DNA of 64,000 nt from an uncultured Alphaproteobacteria bacterium (GTDB lineage Bacteria > Pseudomonadota > Alphaproteobacteria > RF32 > CAG-239). The position numbers and the translations under genes are program-made. Below are positions 173 through 18,803 of this stretch, piece by piece (the stretch's first letter is position 1; each line of letters opens with the position of its first letter). Under the pieces are notes generated by a model. It was not told the DNA's origin, ran no database searches, and worked only from the letters and a program-made list of their open reading frames with translations. Location of the stretch: NCBI GenBank assembly GCA_934254915.1, contig CAKQMH010000002.1, positions 85,259-149,258 of the forward strand. The letters run 5' to 3'.

Positions 173-1563
173 GCGGCCATTGCTCCGATTAGCGATACCG
201 AAGAAATTGTATCGCCCATACCCACCAGTGTAACCGGCTTAGCAATCAAAATTGTAGGTACGGCAATTATATCAAAATCAAGATAACTGCCGATTCCCTC
301 GTCTATAAAATTATCATCGCCGATATATCCGCCGACAGCCTGCAACGCCTCTAACCCTTCAGTGCAGACATCACGACCGTTTGCCCACAATAACTTATCG
401 TGGTTATCCAAACTTCCCGTACCGGCTTTGCCGGCGGCAACCATTGCCGCCAAACACATGCCATCACGATTCTGTTGCGGTGAAAGGCGGAAATTTTTGT
501 TTTGTATCGTCAAATACATTCCGAACATATGTAACTGAATCCGTGCACATTTAACTTTTTGTTTGATTTTAAGCACTGCCTCCAACAAATTAACTGCACT
601 GGTATCAGCCTCGCAAATAGCCGCCAAATCATCTTCGCCGATAACCTGCAAAACCTCTATTGCCTCTCGTTCATTAAGCCCGATTGAATCAGCCTGTGAG
701 GCTATTTTTTCCACAATTGCCTGCCGCACAAGTTTATCTTGAGTCGATGCTACTTCCAGATGAATTAATGCCCCGTCGTTCTGCCAGCGTTTTATAACCG
801 GTGCTGATCCTTCAACCAGCGACACTCCGTCATTTTCTGCCGTCAGGGCATGATAACCCGACAACACTACGGCATTGACCGGATGCTGATTTAAATAGGC
901 GGTAAAGTTTTCATCCATAACCAAGCGGGAATTAAGCGGATCATAGGTTGCAATAAATCGATTCGCTTTTGGACAGGTTATTTTATGCTCACCCAATTCA
1001 AAACTGTCGCCGCGGTTAAATTCAATAATCCAGTGGATTAACGGCACATCGGTTGCGCGGTTTATTTTATGTGCTTTTTGCGGCATACCGTTTTCATCAA
1101 ACGACAACAGATTACCCAAATCAGCAAACAACTTAGCTTGTTGTTCCGGCAGCGAACTGCAATGATTATAAACTTTTTTAACCCCACAAACCGCCATCGC
1201 ATTAGCCACAATTCCGCCTTGCCCGCCCATTTGCAAACGATCAAAGCCTATGTTTTTTACCATCCAGTCAAAAACTTTTTTATACGCCAGCCATTCTTCG
1301 GCGATTCCTTTACTGAAACAGCGAAAAGCGCCTTTTACAAAATCTTGCGGCGTTTGCAGATAATGATGTTCGGGATTATTAAGTTCTTCCCACTCAACAC
1401 CCAAATCCGCCGCTATGCGCGCCAAAGTTTTACCGCTTATCTTTAATACCGCGTCAATATTGGTGTTAAAAGCCGTTGCCACGGATTCCACCTTTGCCAT
1501 TTGCGCTAAAACCTCAGCCGTTCCGGAGTAATGACGATTCCAGATTTTTATTTTTTCCAACAT
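169..1563 (-). CDS. ADP-dependent sugar kinase family protein (ADP-glucokinase/ADP-PFK-like, ribokinase superfamily)
   Basis: 464 aa. Carries a QMGGQGGIVANAMA motif (cf. GGNAGIMAN), an NEREA (NXXE) motif and a C-terminal VGMGDTISS (GXGD catalytic motif). Confidence 0.45.
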   Translation of the reverse strand: MLEKIKIWNRHYSGTAEVLAQMAKVESVATAFNTNIDAVLKISGKTLARIAADLGVEWEELNNPEHHYLQTPQDFVKGAFRCFSKGIAEEWLAYKKVFDWMVKNIGFDRLQMGGQGGIVANAMAVCGVKKVYNHCSSLPEQQAKLFADLGNLLSFDENGMPQKAHKINRATDVPLIHWIIEFNRGDSFELGEHKITCPKANRFIATYDPLNSRLVMDENFTAYLNQHPVNAVVLSGYHALTAENDGVSLVEGSAPVIKRWQNDGALIHLEVASTQDKLVRQAIVEKIASQADSIGLNEREAIEVLQVIGEDDLAAICEADTSAVNLLEAVLKIKQKVKCARIQLHMFGMYLTIQNKNFRLSPQQNRDGMCLAAMVAAGKAGTGSLDNHDKLLWANGRDVCTEGLEALQAVGGYIGDDNFIDEGIGSYLDFDIIAVPTILIAKPVTLVGMGDTISSVSLIGAMAA

Positions 1564-1572
1564 CTGCTTCTC

Positions 1573-2553
1573 TTATTTTTTCTGTGTGGTATTGCGAATA
1601 AAATTAACCTTCATCAACGCCATTGAGCTGGCTGAAATTTTGGTAACTGCTTGATTAAAATCCAGATAATTCTGCACTTGTTGCTGCCATTTTTGCAGAT
1701 TTTCATTTTGCATCAATTCGGCATTTGACTTGCGGTTAAGCTCCCGCAAAACCGCTTTAAAGTTTTCATCAGCGGTCAATTGTTTAATCTTTTCCAAACC
1801 GCTGTCCGCCGTAAACTGCGGCGCATCTTCCTTCACCCGTTTGATTTGCACAATTTCGCTGAGTTTCGAATTAAGACGATCCTTCCAGCTTTTTTCAAAT
1901 TCGGCTTTTTGGACTTTAAGCATCTGCGCATAAATTTTGCCAAACTCTTTTTGCAAATCAGCCGGCGCAATGATTCCTTCCGGAGCTAATTTCACAATCT
2001 GCGCAATCGGTTCTTTGAACTTAATATCCGATTGTGCAATCTGTTGCAAAACTTCAGCTTCGTACTCAAATTGCCCGCCGCGTTCCGCCGCATCTTTTAC
2101 CAACATGGTCGCTGTCAAAATCAAAGCTCCCTCGTCTGTAACTTTTGCCATTGTATCGACTTTTTCTTCCAATTTATCGGTACGCATAATCAAACCCAAA
2201 ACCGTTTTGACATCAGCCTTGGAATCAATCACATTCAAATTTGTTTTTTCAATTGCCGCCACTTTTTCCTGCATTTCGCTATAATCTTGATTATTATTCT
2301 GCATTTCGGCTACATAATTTAACCGGCTTTCCAAATCTTTGATTTTATTTTCCAACGAACTGATCTGCTGCTGATACTCATCGGTATGCCAAGATGACCA
2401 CATTTTTCTTATCTGTGCTAACACCTGCGGATTTTTCCAAACTCCGTAACCGGCAGCCGCCACCACGACAACCGCAATAAGTTTTGCCGTCAGATGACGG
2501 TTTTTCTTTTCTTGTTTTGGTGTTGTAATCTCTATTTCTTTGGTTTTAACCAT
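1573..2553 (-). CDS. Membrane-anchored coiled-coil protein (possible alpha-Mic60/HemX-like)
   Basis: 326 aa with a basic N-terminus, one TM helix (LIAVVVVAAAGYGVW) and a long heptad-rich coiled coil. Divergent to tsaD. Confidence 0.35.
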   Translation of the reverse strand: MVKTKEIEITTPKQEKKNRHLTAKLIAVVVVAAAGYGVWKNPQVLAQIRKMWSSWHTDEYQQQISSLENKIKDLESRLNYVAEMQNNNQDYSEMQEKVAAIEKTNLNVIDSKADVKTVLGLIMRTDKLEEKVDTMAKVTDEGALILTATMLVKDAAERGGQFEYEAEVLQQIAQSDIKFKEPIAQIVKLAPEGIIAPADLQKEFGKIYAQMLKVQKAEFEKSWKDRLNSKLSEIVQIKRVKEDAPQFTADSGLEKIKQLTADENFKAVLRELNRKSNAELMQNENLQKWQQQVQNYLDFNQAVTKISASSMALMKVNFIRNTTQKK

Positions 2554-2660
2554 TTTACTAATCCTTTGCAGTAAATTCTTGGCATTAAACTTTTTCTAGT
2601 GTATATAATATAAAAAAAACTGCAATAAATATATGCACTAATTAAACACAAAGGAAATCC

Positions 2661-3737
2661 ATGAGAGTTTTAGGGATAGAAAGCAGCTGTGACGAAACTG
2701 CCGCCGCCATTGTAACCGACCGCCGCGAAATACTTGGCTCATCAGTCTTAACCCAACTTGAACACAAAATCTACGGTGGTGTTGTTCCTGAGATTGCCGC
2801 CCGCGCGCACCTTGAACATATTGACGAGATTTTGGAAGACACTTTCAAACAAGCCGGCCTCACTCCTCAAGACATTGATGCTGTCGCTGCCTCTTCTGGA
2901 CCGGGATTAATCGGCGGAGTTGTCGTCGGTGCTATGGCCGGCAAAGCTTTGGCTTTTGCACTTAACAAACCTTTTATTGCCGTCAATCATCTCGAAGGAC
3001 ATGCTTTGGCTGCCCGCCTGACTAATGATGTGGCCTATCCGTTTTTGTTGTTGCTGGTTTCCGGCGGACACTGTCAAATCCTGATTGTTAAAGGCGTCGG
3101 TGAATTTGAACGTCTGGGTACAACTATTGATGACGCCGCCGGTGAAGCTTTTGACAAAGTCGCCAAAATGCTTAACCTTGGCTACCCCGGTGGGCCGATG
3201 ATTGAAAAAATGGCCGAACTCGGTGACGAAAACCGCTTTGTCCTACCACGCCCGCTGGCTAATTCCGGTGATTGCAATTTGTCTTTTTCCGGCTTAAAAA
3301 CCGCTGTTCGCAAAATCATTGAATCTTACGCGCCTGATGACAATATTGAACATGCCATTTTGCATAAACATGATGTTGCCGATATTTGTGCCGGTTTTCA
3401 ATTAGCCGTAACCGACAGTTTGGTTCACAAACTACAAAAAGCCATTGCCGTTTTCAAGTCCAAATACCCCGAAGGCAAAGATTTGGTGGTTTCCGGCGGT
3501 GTGGCGGCCAACGCTTATTTGCGTCGGCATTTGCAAGAACTGGCTGATAAAAACGGCTTAATTTTTGCCGCTCCGCCGATTAAATATTGCACCGACAACG
3601 GCGTTATGATTGCCTGGGCCGGAATGGAACGAGCCTTAAAAGGAATGTATAACAATCTCGACTTCAAACCCCGCCCGCGTTGGCCGTTAGATGAAAATGC
3701 ACCCAAAGCTGCCGGTGCCGGTGGAGTAAAAGCCTGA
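2661..3737 (+). CDS. tsaD: tRNA N6-adenosine threonylcarbamoyltransferase TsaD (Kae1/YgjD)
   Basis: 358 aa. Motifs MRVLGIESSCDETAAAI and HLEGHALAA. RBS aaaggaa upstream. Confidence 0.9.
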   Translation: MRVLGIESSCDETAAAIVTDRREILGSSVLTQLEHKIYGGVVPEIAARAHLEHIDEILEDTFKQAGLTPQDIDAVAASSGPGLIGGVVVGAMAGKALAFALNKPFIAVNHLEGHALAARLTNDVAYPFLLLLVSGGHCQILIVKGVGEFERLGTTIDDAAGEAFDKVAKMLNLGYPGGPMIEKMAELGDENRFVLPRPLANSGDCNLSFSGLKTAVRKIIESYAPDDNIEHAILHKHDVADICAGFQLAVTDSLVHKLQKAIAVFKSKYPEGKDLVVSGGVAANAYLRRHLQELADKNGLIFAAPPIKYCTDNGVMIAWAGMERALKGMYNNLDFKPRPRWPLDENAPKAAGAGGVKA

Positions 3738-16011: not shown

Positions 16012-16024
16012 TACTAAAAAAGCC

Positions 16025-16056
16025 GCCCTATCAGGCGGCTTTTTTACAACCATTTG
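16025..16056 (+). terminator. Rho-independent terminator
   Basis: agccgcc-ctatca-ggcggct followed by ttttt. Confidence 0.6.
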
Positions 16057-16532: not shown

Positions 16533-16609
16533 GTACCCGTAGCTCAGTTGGATAGAGTATCAGCCTCCGACGCTGAGGGTCGTGGGTTCGAATCCCTCCG
16601 GGTACGCCA
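16533..16609 (+). tRNA. tRNA-Arg (anticodon CCG)
   Basis: Acceptor GTACCCG/CGGGTAC with encoded CCA. D-arm TAGCTCAGTTGGATAGAGT. Anticodon loop CTCCGAC. T-loop GTTCGAATC. One T.T mismatch in the T-stem. Confidence 0.8.
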
Positions 16610-16650
16610 ACCACCAAGCCGCCATTCAGGCGGCTTTTTTTGGTGGTTGG
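16610..16650. terminator. Extended GC hairpin terminator following the tRNA (ccaaccacca...gccgcc-attca-ggcggc-ttttttt-ggtggttgg)
   Basis: Nested inverted repeat with a T7 run. Confidence 0.6.
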
Positions 16651-16699
16651 TGTACCCGTGGAATACAAAAGCACAGAAGTGGGTTCGACTACCAGCGAA
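16618..16699 (+). repeat. Direct repeat copy 1 (terminator hairpin plus tRNA-like fragment)
   Basis: 82 bp, gccgccattcaggcggctttttttggtggttgg + tgtacccgtggaatacaaaagcacagaagtgggttcgactaccagcgaa. Confidence 0.7.
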
Positions 16700-16797
16700 A
16701 GCGATACGGGGGTATCGCGGTCAGCGTCAGCTGATGAGCGCCTGTGCAACTCGAGCGTAGCGAAGAGTAATCCCTCCTCCATTGTTACACAATGGAC

Positions 16798-16878
16798 GCC
16801 GCCATTCAGGCGGCTTTTTTTGGTGGTTGGCGTACCCGTGGATACGAAAACACAGAAGTGGGTTCGACTACCAGCGAA
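16798..16878 (+). repeat. Direct repeat copy 2 (about 93% identical, 180-bp period)
   Basis: 81 bp, the same unit with a few substitutions and a 1-nt indel. Confidence 0.7.
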
Positions 16879-17327
16879 GATTTTGGCCTTATTCTCCGTG
16901 CTGCGCATCAGTCGCGGCACTAATATTGTCATGTCGAGCAACGTCGAGACATCTCGGCTATATTTTTTTACAATGTTGCAACAAAATCAATGTCGGGACT
17001 TCGCCCGACAGTACGCTAATGCCGAGATTTCTCCATTCCGCTAGCGCTCCAGTCGAAATGACATTTAAAATATTCCTGCACCAATGCACTGAGTCATAGA
17101 AGTTCGGAGAACGGTCACAGATAAAGTGATTTTGAAGGCGAGAAAAATTTTAGTGTACACACTAGTACATGAATTTTTCGAGACCGCACAAAATCGCTTT
17201 AGATGTGCCGTTATACGAACTTCACAACACCAAGATATCCCCACTATCCACAACTCCACCCCTTCATATCCTTTGTCTTTTGAAAAAATATTGATTATAA
17301 AGAAGAAAAAATTAGAGGACTCTGACA

Positions 17328-18803
17328 ATGCAAAACCCTGAAATTACGGAATTACCCCAAAATATTGAAGCCGAACAGGCTCTGCTTGGCGCTATTTTAG
17401 CCAACAACAAAGCTTTTGAAAAAGTGTCGGAGTTTTTAAAACCGCAACACTTTGCCGACCCGATTCACCAAAAAATATTTGAGGTTATCTCCAAATTGAT
17501 TACCCGCGGACATATTGCCGATGTAATCACTTTAAAAAATTACTTTGAACAGGAAGGAACGCTGAATGACGTCGGCGGCGCTAAATATCTGATAAAACTG
17601 GCTGACAGCTCAACTCCGCTGACTAATGCCGAATACTACGCTCAGTTTATTTATGATAAATACTTGCGGCGCGAGCTGATTTCTACCGGTTTTGACATCG
17701 TTAACAATGCGGCTAAAGAAGATTTGGACTCCGACGCCAATGATCAAATTGAGCAGGCGGAACGCCGTTTGTTTGAATTATCCAACCAAGGTGATGTTAA
17801 CGGCGGATTTGTTGATTTTGCCGATGCCCTGACTTCCTCTCTCGGACACATTGAGCAAGCTTATCAGAAAGACGGCAAAATATCCGGCTTACCGACGGCG
17901 CTTGACGCTTTGGATAATAAAATTGGCGGTTTAAATAATTCCGACTTGTTGATTATCGCCGGCCGTCCGGCTATGGGTAAAACGGCTCTGGCAACCAACA
18001 TTGCCTATAATGTTGCCGATTATATGCTCCACGCCAAAGATTTGGATGAAAAATCCAAAGGCGTAGCTTTTTTCTCACTGGAAATGTCCGCTGACCAATT
18101 GGCCACCCGTATACTTTCAACCGTTACTCAAACCAACGGCCACAAAATGCGTACCGGTGAACTGGACAATGCCGAATTTACGCGGATTGCCGCCGCTGTT
18201 CGCGAATTGGAAAAGATTCCTTTGTATATTGACGATACTCCGGGGTTAAATATTAATACTATCCGCACCCGCGCTCGCCGCCTCAAACGCAATAAAGGTT
18301 TGGGCTTGATTGTCATTGACTATATTCAACTGATTAACGGCACCGGCAGCAAACGCTCGGAAGGAAACCGCGTTCAAGAATTGTCCGAAATCTCCCGTGG
18401 GTTGAAAATCATGGCTAAAGAATTAAATCTTCCGGTAATTGCTTTGTCGCAGCTCAACCGCGGTGTCGAGCAACGTGACGATAAACGCCCCTTGATGTCA
18501 GACTTGCGTGAATCCGGCTCAATCGAACAAGATGCTGATATCGTAATGTTTGTATACCGTGAAAATTATTATCTCAAAAATGAAGAACCACAGCAAAAAC
18601 CTTCCGAAACTCCGGAACATCTGCAAAAACGCATGGAAGAATGGGAAGCTCGCGTCCGCGCTACCAATAATATCGGTGAAGTTATCATCGGCAAACAGCG
18701 TCACGGTCCGACCGGCACAGTTCAGTTGTTTTGGAACGGCGATTATGCTCAGTTCGGCAATCTTGCTAAAGAAGAATATCTGCCTGATCGTATAGGAGAT
18801 TAA
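17328..18803 (+). CDS. dnaB: Replicative DNA helicase DnaB
   Basis: 491 aa with AEQALLGAIL and Walker A GRPAMGKTALA. No intein. Confidence 0.95.
   Translation: MQNPEITELPQNIEAEQALLGAILANNKAFEKVSEFLKPQHFADPIHQKIFEVISKLITRGHIADVITLKNYFEQEGTLNDVGGAKYLIKLADSSTPLTNAEYYAQFIYDKYLRRELISTGFDIVNNAAKEDLDSDANDQIEQAERRLFELSNQGDVNGGFVDFADALTSSLGHIEQAYQKDGKISGLPTALDALDNKIGGLNNSDLLIIAGRPAMGKTALATNIAYNVADYMLHAKDLDEKSKGVAFFSLEMSADQLATRILSTVTQTNGHKMRTGELDNAEFTRIAAAVRELEKIPLYIDDTPGLNINTIRTRARRLKRNKGLGLIVIDYIQLINGTGSKRSEGNRVQELSEISRGLKIMAKELNLPVIALSQLNRGVEQRDDKRPLMSDLRESGSIEQDADIVMFVYRENYYLKNEEPQQKPSETPEHLQKRMEEWEARVRATNNIGEVIIGKQRHGPTGTVQLFWNGDYAQFGNLAKEEYLPDRIGD

Follow-up and report, generated by a model that had tools for sequence, protein, structure and literature searches.

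The 178-base-pair (bp) repeats of the Escherichia coli tyrT-tyrV region and RtT RNA (rttR) were reportedly described by Egan and Landy in 1978, Rossi et al. in 1981, and Bösl and Kersten in 1991. To our knowledge, neither an origin nor a function has been accepted for them since that first description. When checked on strain MG1655 (NC_000913.3), tyrV was found to be followed by three tandem units that recur every 178 bp, with a further unit located between tyrT and tyrV. The units end in the last 19 nucleotides (nt) of tRNA-Tyr (AATCCTTCCCCCACCACCA, T-loop AA to CCA), and their internal junctions (marked here by a slash) are AAGGTTCGA/CTCGAG... (the 5' half of the T-arm) and, at the end of an insert of ~66 nt, ...GAGT/AATCC. 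A unit also contains a 22-nt inverted copy of the 3' part of the tRNA (86%), which is paired with the 3' block in the Rfam consensus for RtT (RF00391, helix P1). Where PMC3318445 cites Bösl and Kersten (1991), it gives RtT RNA as the product of one repeated unit of the tyrT operon, and the mode of action of the RNA has been described as unknown (bioRxiv 10.1101/2024.07.17.603846). Here, we analyze a pair of direct repeats behind a tRNA-Arg(CCG) gene in a 64,000-nt stretch of DNA ("the window") from an uncultured alphaproteobacterium (GCA_934254915.1, contig CAKQMH010000002.1, positions 85,259 to 149,258). We consider it probable, with moderate confidence, that these repeats are 1.45 units of a 180-bp cassette (type A) belonging to a clade-specific family that is built on fragments of the tRNA 3' half and is RtT-like.

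Integration into tRNA genes is another described process with which such a locus can be compared. Its signature is a tRNA gene accompanied by a displaced 3' fragment, with the crossover in the T-loop or at the junction of the T and acceptor stems (Islander, PMC4383910). The core of the Ms6 phage attachment site (attP), for example, lies in the T-loop of tRNA-Ala (PMC1762012), and elements of the CIME type, which have no integrase, are a related case (PMC5704250).

Two direct repeats form part of a 180-bp unit

The only tRNA gene of the window, tRNA-Arg(CCG) (ARAGORN; Rfam tRNA model, 64.4 bits), is flanked by rpmB, encoding ribosomal protein L28 (16066-16353, minus strand), on one side and by dnaB (17328-18803, plus strand) on the other (Table 1). 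A first-pass annotation of this DNA, made from the sequence alone, had reported two direct repeats with a period of 180 bp immediately 3' of the tRNA gene (16618-16699 and 16798-16878), and these proved to be real. The copies align in two parts, 16618-16662 with 16798-16842 (45 nt, 98% identity) and 16663-16699 with 16842-16878 (37 nt, 95% identity), which are offset by a 1-nt indel such that the spacing is 180 and then 179. The four differences in 82 nt correspond to an overall identity of ~95%, slightly higher than the ~93% given originally.

The likelihood that the repeats reflect chance similarity or an assembly artifact is close to nil. Assemblers evidently struggle at this position: of 10 metagenome contigs with an identical L28 protein, 8 terminate in the cassette region (L003 to L010, window ~16630-16770; L numbers designate the loci and contigs compared). 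The locus is a systematic assembly breakpoint, and the cassette region explains why metagenome contigs break here. However, the shuffle expectation for a 47-nt half of the repeat was 0.00 (100 shuffles), and homologous units are present in >12 species. Because L002, a metagenome assembly made independently (98.6% identical), has the same two-copy layout, the repeats are not an assembly artifact.

The motif gtacccgt in the repeats had been read as a mimic of the 5' acceptor end of the tRNA, an assignment that has to be replaced. In the output of the repeat finder, TTGGTGGTTGG[T/C]GTACCCG (16640-16658 and 16820-16838) is the reverse complement of 16599-16617, a segment comprising the 3' strand of the acceptor stem, the discriminator, CCA, and 8 nt of trailer. 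The complementarity over 19 nt is 95% (18/19) for copy 1 and 100% (19/19) for copy 2 and far exceeds a 7-nt acceptor stem; the motif is thus the inverted 3' end of the tRNA with CCA and trailer. The T-arm-like piece was recognized correctly, as GTGGGTTCGA repeats tRNA positions 49-58 in direct orientation in both copies. A third segment taken from the tRNA had gone unnoticed, namely, AATCCCTCC, which corresponds to tRNA positions 58-66 and lies in what had been taken for a spacer between the copies. The unit is therefore 180 bp long and not an 82-bp repeat followed by unrelated DNA.

These pieces also bear on the suggestion that the entire tRNA gene was duplicated in tandem and that the copies then decayed, with an internal deletion, a history that we judge highly improbable. 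All of the pieces are derived from the tRNA, as that suggestion supposes, and on the plus strand an acceptor-like piece precedes a T-arm-like piece. Nonetheless, the piece that looks like an acceptor strand is complementary at 19/19 positions to the 3' end, CCA, and trailer and does not correspond to the 5' end and leader. Remnants of the D-arm and anticodon arm are absent, ARAGORN predicts one tRNA, and the Rfam tRNA model yields no second match at E <= 10. Relatives moreover carry a conserved insert that is not tRNA. What the unit contains is no cloverleaf, only the 3' half of the tRNA (positions 49-76), once inverted and once direct.

As first annotated, a terminator-like hairpin opens both units, and two further hairpins of the former spacer are present (GCGATAC-GGGG-GTATCGC; CCATTGT-TAC-ACAATGG at 16779-16795). 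The likeness to the tRNA survives alignment, so the locus is not an ordinary terminator duplication devoid of tRNA similarity. Together, the tRNA end and inverted copy 1 make up a long palindrome around terminator 1, and the two segments pair in the minimum free energy (MFE) fold. Unit 1 extends from ~16610 to 16789, whereas unit 2 ends after 81 nt, at 16878, where homology to the cassette stops. The window copy shows partial decay. In unit 1, the 3' block and trailer have been replaced, and this unit is without GGGTACGCCA and the adjoining long hairpin and keeps 9 of the 19 nt of the terminal block (AATCCCTCC); a head-to-head T-arm hairpin seen in relatives is degenerate; and unit 2 is truncated before the block.

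A 134-amino-acid (aa) open reading frame (ORF; 16640-17044, plus strand) crosses both units and is annotated as a gene in L001 (3310-3711). It is probably spurious because it reads through tRNA-derived and repeated DNA and has no Pfam family above threshold, and the analysis thus flags a probably spurious 133-aa gene call.

Table 1. Positions of the tRNA gene and of the cassette features in the window
Feature	Position	Strand	Basis
tRNA-Arg(CCG) gene; last 19 nt (16591-16609) are AATCCCTCCGGGTACGCCA, T-loop to CCA	16533..16609	+	ARAGORN, Rfam
Trailer ACCACCAA and intrinsic terminator 1, start of unit 1	16610..16640	+	Hairpin 16616-16636, T-run to 16640; terminator scan
Inverted copy 1 of tRNA 3' end, CCA, and trailer (invS), TTGGTGGTTGGTGTACCCG	16640..16658	+	Inverted repeat I2, 19 nt, 95%
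First direct copy of the 5' half of the T-arm, GTGGGTTCGA, at the left insert junction	16679..16688	+	Repeat family D4, pattern search, alignment with relatives
Type-A insert, ending in AGAGT	16689..16768	+	Alignment with 11 relatives; R1 match
Insert hairpin h1, GCGATAC/GGGG/GTATCGC	16701-16718	+	Alignment with relatives
Insert hairpin h2, TCAGC/GTCA/GCTGA	16721-16734	+	Alignment with relatives
Remnant of the 3' block, AATCCCTCC, tRNA positions 58-66; relatives continue as GGGTACGCCA	16769..16777	+	Alignments
20-nt hairpin TCCATTGTTACACAATGGAC in place of the expected GGGTACGCCA and trailer (18 nt), end of unit 1	16778..16797	+	Comparison with relatives
Intrinsic terminator 2, start of partial unit 2	16798..16821	+	Hairpin 16798-16814 and T-run; terminator scan, repeat family D1
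Inverted copy 2 of tRNA 3' end, CCA, and trailer, TTGGTGGTTGGCGTACCCG	16820..16838	+	Inverted repeat I1, 19 nt, 100%
Second direct copy of the 5' half of the T-arm (16858-16867) and first 11 nt of the insert, then truncation	16858..16878	+	Repeat family D2

The unit belongs to a cassette family of one clade

Relatives of the locus were gathered by a DnaB-based scan, with one genome taken per species. The window DnaB is 91 to 92% identical to that of "Proteobacteria bacterium CAG:495" and of related metagenome-assembled genomes, which places the source organism among uncultured gut Alphaproteobacteria. In ~20 related species, tRNA-Arg(CCG) adjoins rpmB, and a comparison of these loci, which the first-pass annotation had recommended, revealed tandem cassette arrays on the sense strand behind the tRNA in many of them. 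In most relatives, the layout is array, tRNA (minus), rpmB (plus), dnaB (plus); the window, L025, L026/L120/L124/L143, L038, and L040 have the block of rpmB, tRNA-Arg, and array turned around with respect to dnaB.

Alignments of 12 sequences (the window and 11 relatives) gave the anatomy of the unit. It begins with the trailer and a long terminator hairpin, followed by an inverted copy of tRNA positions ~49-76, a purine-rich spacer of 0 to 6 nt (GARGAA in type A), and a direct copy of the 5' half of the T-arm (positions 49-58). The insert then follows (72 to 82 nt with two hairpins), and the unit closes with the end of the tRNA. This 3' end consists of the last 13 to 19 nt of the tRNA (...CCCTCCGGGTACGCCA), from T-loop to CCA, and reads AATCCCTCCGGGTACGCCA or nearly so in relatives. 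The same AATCCCTCCGGGTACGCCA, the last 19 nt of the tRNA gene, is the "block" that closes every intact cassette in the relatives. Four types of unit occur: type A, the window's own (177 to 188 bp), and types B (230 to 235 bp), C (187 to 203 bp), and D (211 to 217 bp), which are related to one another. Because type-A units of relatives span 177 to 188 bp, the 180-bp period of the window is exactly one type-A unit.

A covariance model built from 11 type-A cassettes of relatives, with the window excluded (R1), matched the window at 16647-16781 (53.5 bits, E = 3e-13) and scored only 15.3 bits on the truncated copy (16827-17018). Beyond these two copies, R1 retrieved nothing else from the 64-kb window. 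Searches with up to 3 mismatches likewise found no copies away from this locus in the window, and in the fetched loci, BLAST matches adjoined tRNA-Arg only. An Rfam search of the window and seven arrays returned only tRNA. As a background control, ~12 unrelated tRNAs were inspected, none of which had such copies. When IMG/VR was scanned, the pattern for the tRNA 3' end retrieved tRNA-Arg genes flanked by prophages with no cassettes, the B/C pattern gave no match, and the A pattern gave one chance match within a coding region of a high-GC contig. A metagenome scan with a gapped A pattern was too permissive, with at least ~117 chance matches in high-GC contigs; among the matches listed, only L120, L124, and L143 were useful. 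Judged by these searches, the family is confined to one clade, of genus rank, of uncultured gut Alphaproteobacteria close to "Proteobacteria bacterium CAG:495."

The cassettes share several properties with dispersed repeats such as the repetitive extragenic palindromic sequences and bacterial interspersed mosaic elements (REP/BIME), the enterobacterial repetitive intergenic consensus (ERIC), and Correia-type elements. They are small, hairpin-rich units with inverted bounds, they follow the 3' end of a gene, and they contain terminator-like hairpins. In contrast to those families, the cassettes are not dispersed: every copy seen stands beside tRNA-Arg(CCG), in tandem and in defined types, and the cassette ends derive from the adjacent tRNA.

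Cassette bodies are conserved and predicted to fold

Between species whose dnaB genes are 78 to 82% identical at the nucleotide level, the cassette bodies are 80 to 96% identical. The rpmB-tRNA spacers of the same species reach 55 to 65% overall and 73 to 80% in aligned columns, and the terminator parts of the same units only 55 to 67%. Type C of L020 and L023 is 96% identical (dnaB, 81%), and type A of L023 and L030 is 92 to 94% identical (dnaB, 78%). By these alignments, the bodies are not neutral, being conserved beyond the rpmB-tRNA spacer and to a degree equal to that of dnaB or higher.

The proposed helices are well maintained in the alignment of type A. Paired cells made up 86% of the helix between the inverted copy and the 3' block, 95% of the head-to-head T-arm hairpin, and 79% of insert hairpin h1; the figure for all proposed helices was 87.7%, compared with 29 to 45% in a control in which the partners were slid. 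G-U pairs account for ~12% of the paired cells on the tRNA-sense strand. In the window, h1 and h2 are perfect stems, and their arms differ from those of relatives by paired (compensatory) changes. The arms of h1 are GCGATAC/GTATCGC in the window and GGCATAC/GTATGCC in relatives, while those of h2 are TCAGC/GCTGA in the window and TACGC/GCGTA or TCGGC/GCCGA in relatives. For type B, a long-range consensus fold with seven compensatory pairs was obtained.

Architectural analogy to RtT RNA

The resemblance to the E. coli repeats extends over most of the unit. In both systems, the 3' end of a tRNA gene is immediately followed by tandem units, whose period is 180/179 in the window and 178 in E. coli. 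Both have a direct copy of the 5' half of the T-arm followed by an insert, the junctions being GTGGGTTCGA/CTACC...AGAGT/AATCC in the window and AAGGTTCGA/CTCGAG...GAGT/AATCC in E. coli, and in both a GC- and purine-rich hairpin insert of 66 to 82 nt ends at GAGT/AATCC. Every unit contains an inverted copy of the tRNA 3' end (19 nt, 95 to 100%, in the window; 22 nt, 86%, in E. coli). The terminal 19-nt tRNA block ends the E. coli units as well as the intact cassettes of relatives, with 9 of the 19 nt kept in the window. An ORF also runs through the unit in each case, tpr in E. coli and the 134-aa ORF in the window.

There are also differences. The E. coli repeats follow tRNA-Tyr in a gammaproteobacterium, whereas the cassettes follow tRNA-Arg-CCG in Alphaproteobacteria. 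An intrinsic terminator opens each cassette, while the E. coli units have none, and four body types (A to D) are mixed in the arrays of the clade compared with one in E. coli. An RNA product has been demonstrated for E. coli only; the cassettes are known from sequence.

By analogy, the most likely function of the cassettes is that of an RtT-like read-through RNA. Intact units would be transcribed by read-through from the tRNA promoter, and the inverted copy would pair with the 3' block to form a minihelix-like closing stem, the equivalent of P1 in the Rfam RtT model. The folded units could then be released as small RNAs and processed like RtT. The hairpin at the start of the unit looks bidirectional, and, given that terminators precede each unit, read-through would be required for a processed small RNA to arise. 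Of the options offered in the first-pass annotation, a small structured RNA comes closest to what we found: the conserved, hairpin-rich cassette with an RtT skeleton is in line with it, and the RNA itself is a prediction from analogy.

Several observations weigh against an RtT-like function. Efficient co-transcription with the tRNA is disfavored because a strong terminator precedes every unit, unlike in E. coli. Covariation in type A is thin (two compensatory pairs, six cells), and MFE z-scores have no strand preference, with type A slightly better in sense and types B, C, and D slightly better in antisense. The window copy may be nonfunctional, as its 3' block is gone and some strains are without the region. 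The comparative data consist entirely of metagenome assemblies, which can mis-join repeats. Furthermore, RF00391 (gathering score, 45 bits) gave no match at E <= 10 in the window, L229, L124, or L016 and none at E <= 0.1 on seven arrays, with the E. coli positive control at 133 to 138 bits; R1 in turn, run also with filters off, gave no match to the E. coli units. Local alignments of the type-A insert alone with that of E. coli RtT did not rise above dinucleotide-preserving shuffles.

We had considered homology between the type-A insert and the E. coli RtT insert on the strength of globally anchored alignments (z of 6 to 8) and rejected it, as these scores are driven by the tRNA-derived ends. 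Because the insert-only alignments and the covariance searches in both directions were negative, homology to RtT is rejected and the analogy kept. On present sequence comparisons, the cassettes are analogous to RtT in architecture, and membership in that family is not detectable.

Read as such an analogue, the locus would be a second, independent instance of the RtT skeleton, at another tRNA, in another bacterial class, and with four cassette types. Such recurrence points either to a recurrent process at tRNA 3' ends or to a functional RNA architecture. The natural variation in unit number and order within species, together with the conservation of the bodies, makes this question testable by comparison and by metatranscriptomics. 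A broader proposition, which we put forward tentatively and regard as unlikely, is that RtT-type units form a general, cross-phylum class of small RNAs or cassettes scaffolded on the 3' half of a host tRNA. If this were true, the inverted copy and the T-loop-to-CCA block would form a minihelix resembling the acceptor and T stems and ending in CCA. Exchangeable structured inserts (A to D) would be shuffled, gained, and lost at the tRNA gene and would possibly move between species, and the alphaproteobacterial arrays would be the first comparative system for the role and origin of RtT-like RNA.

Array variation and possible mobile origins

The arrays differ in composition between species. Their orders are A-D in L029, D-A-D in its sister species L030, A-C in L023, C-D in L050, A-B in L014, and B-B-B in L060. 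Variation within a species is best seen in that of L023, for which nine contigs from different samples with identical flanks contain no array, C, A, A-C, C-A-C', or C-C'. Hybrid terminators follow the blocks in these arrays, and one array end lies at an 8-nt microhomology, CGGCGGAT. From their sequences, the variants can be interconverted by recombination between blocks or similar terminators combined with illegitimate deletions. Because these events suffice to derive every variant in that species, no site-specific step is required. We propose that whole units would generally be added to or lost from arrays through recombination of the 19-nt blocks with one another and of similar terminators, with distal array ends being trimmed by microhomology deletions.

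In the window's own species, strains contain 1.45, about 1, or 0 units. The interval 16731-16975 is missing from L003, and ~16660-17050 is missing from L005 and L006, in which the terminator and inverted copy remain. In L002, the variant positions of copies 1 and 2 are swapped relative to the window, which indicates exchange between the two copies. A look-up of the window DnaB protein yielded no further structural variants. The window cassette is a member of the clade family, is built from the 3' half of the tRNA, and is polymorphic within its species.

Repeated integration and excision at the tRNA had been proposed as one source of the repeats. The cassettes would then be scars or miniature remnants of integrative elements that had entered at the T-loop or 3' end of tRNA-Arg, and the arrays would record serial integrations, each leaving attP-derived arms and a displaced tRNA 3' fragment after deletion of the remainder. 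The tRNA-derived junctions do lie in the T-loop, and a block from T-loop to CCA is the classic identity block of tRNA gene integrases (PMC4383910, PMC1762012). The cassette (177 to 235 bp) is also near the typical attP size of ~250 bp (PMC4383910), and a given body is accompanied by the trailer and terminator that precede it, like a P' arm supplied by an element. As in genomic islands, direct repeats of the tRNA 3' end stand behind an intact gene, and a prophage and an islet of the clade both occupy this tRNA.

The prophage, which encodes a large serine recombinase, abuts tRNA-Arg in L092 to L094. The recombinase (1196-2740, minus strand, in L093; also seen in L092 and L094) is a 514-aa protein with Resolvase and Recombinase domains, and its ORF extends into the tRNA-Arg(CCG) 3' end. 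According to the Islander paper, only tyrosine integrases were known to target tRNA genes (PMC4383910). In L026 (2062-3612) and L120, the islet, of 1.55 kb, separates the tRNA from an A module that ends in the block; in the conspecific L124 and L143, the A module follows the tRNA without it. The islet encodes a 51-aa DUF6538 fragment of an integrase N terminus and a major facilitator superfamily (MFS) transporter, and the left part of the A module, which has diverged, comes with the islet. A search for full-length relatives of the integrase fragment returned the fragment alone. Insertion of the islet at the head-to-head T-arm palindrome was considered and rejected, as the divergence reaches ~25 nt past the spacer.

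Even so, we hold an origin of the cassettes as integration scars, the main rival explanation, to be improbable. The annotation was right that no integrase or cargo remains in the window interval, and the same holds for every array, apart from the 51-aa integrase fragment of L026 and L120. Each unit has an additional inverted tRNA fragment, and in relatives the direct 3' fragment is split by the insert into the T-arm 5' half and the 3' block (9 nt in the window), whereas an att fragment should be contiguous and direct. The bodies are conserved across species well above the neutral spacer, with their hairpins kept, and A and B/C bodies are absent from the IMG/VR scans. The variants within species can be derived by deletions between blocks, with variable crossovers, hybrid terminators, and one microhomology end, and the E. 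coli RtT unit, which has the same skeleton, is a stable processed RNA. Units are also far below the 2-kb size of recognized islands. The integration proposal is kept as an alternative, in that tRNA-Arg is an integration site in this clade and the junctions lie in the T-loop. The inverted and split fragments, conserved bodies, absence from IMG/VR, and variable crossovers fit an RtT-like element better than att scars. As a caution, the presence of tRNA fragments beside a tRNA gene does not in itself indicate an island.

A further alternative is that the cassettes are nonautonomous mobile units, comparable to miniature inverted-repeat transposable elements or integron cassettes. They would be moved in trans by a recombinase encoded elsewhere that recognizes the tRNA-derived inverted ends or the T-arm palindrome (10-nt arms, 6-nt spacer GARGAA). 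Inverted tRNA-derived sequences bound each unit, types appear in shuffled order among strains and species, and the palindrome TTGAACCCAC-GARGAA-GTGGGTTCGA has the geometry of a tyrosine recombinase core. The type-A body of L030, moreover, is nearer that of the distant L023 (92 to 94%) than that of its sister L029 (86 to 87%), as exchange between lineages would produce. That pattern may reflect either such exchange or old paralogues with differential loss, and the latter also explains L029 and L030. We rate mobility in trans as quite improbable: copies are confined to tRNA-Arg in the 64-kb window and in every fetched locus, target-site duplications are absent, array ends are ragged with variable crossover points, and no candidate recombinase is linked to the arrays. 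An RtT-like cassette family that varies by recombination between its own blocks and terminators remains our preferred reading.

Other features of the locus

The T-stem of tRNA-Arg (16582-16597) contains a U50-U64 mismatch that was flagged by cmscan. Since relatives also carry U-C or other combinations at this pair, the odd pair is a feature of the clade.

Past the truncated unit (16879-17063), an imperfect inverted repeat is formed by GTCATGTCGAG...GAGACATCTCGGC (16930-16958) and GCCGAGATTTCTC...GTCGAAATGAC (~17022-17063). Between its arms lie two terminator-like hairpins, one on each strand. On the other side of the tRNA, a bidirectional terminator (16015-16046) between a gene of the ArsR type with a double helix-turn-helix and rpmB shares TCAGGCGGCTTTTTT with both cassette terminators (repeat families D3, I6, and I7). 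The sharing of TCAGGCGGCTTTTTT could be a coincidence or could mark a recombination partner.

Upstream of dnaB, a DnaA-box-like motif, CTATCCACA (17244-17252), occurs within a C-rich stretch ~80 nt from the gene. Similar motifs, TTATCCACA or ATCCACA, are found at the equivalent place upstream of dnaB in L011, L035, and L124.

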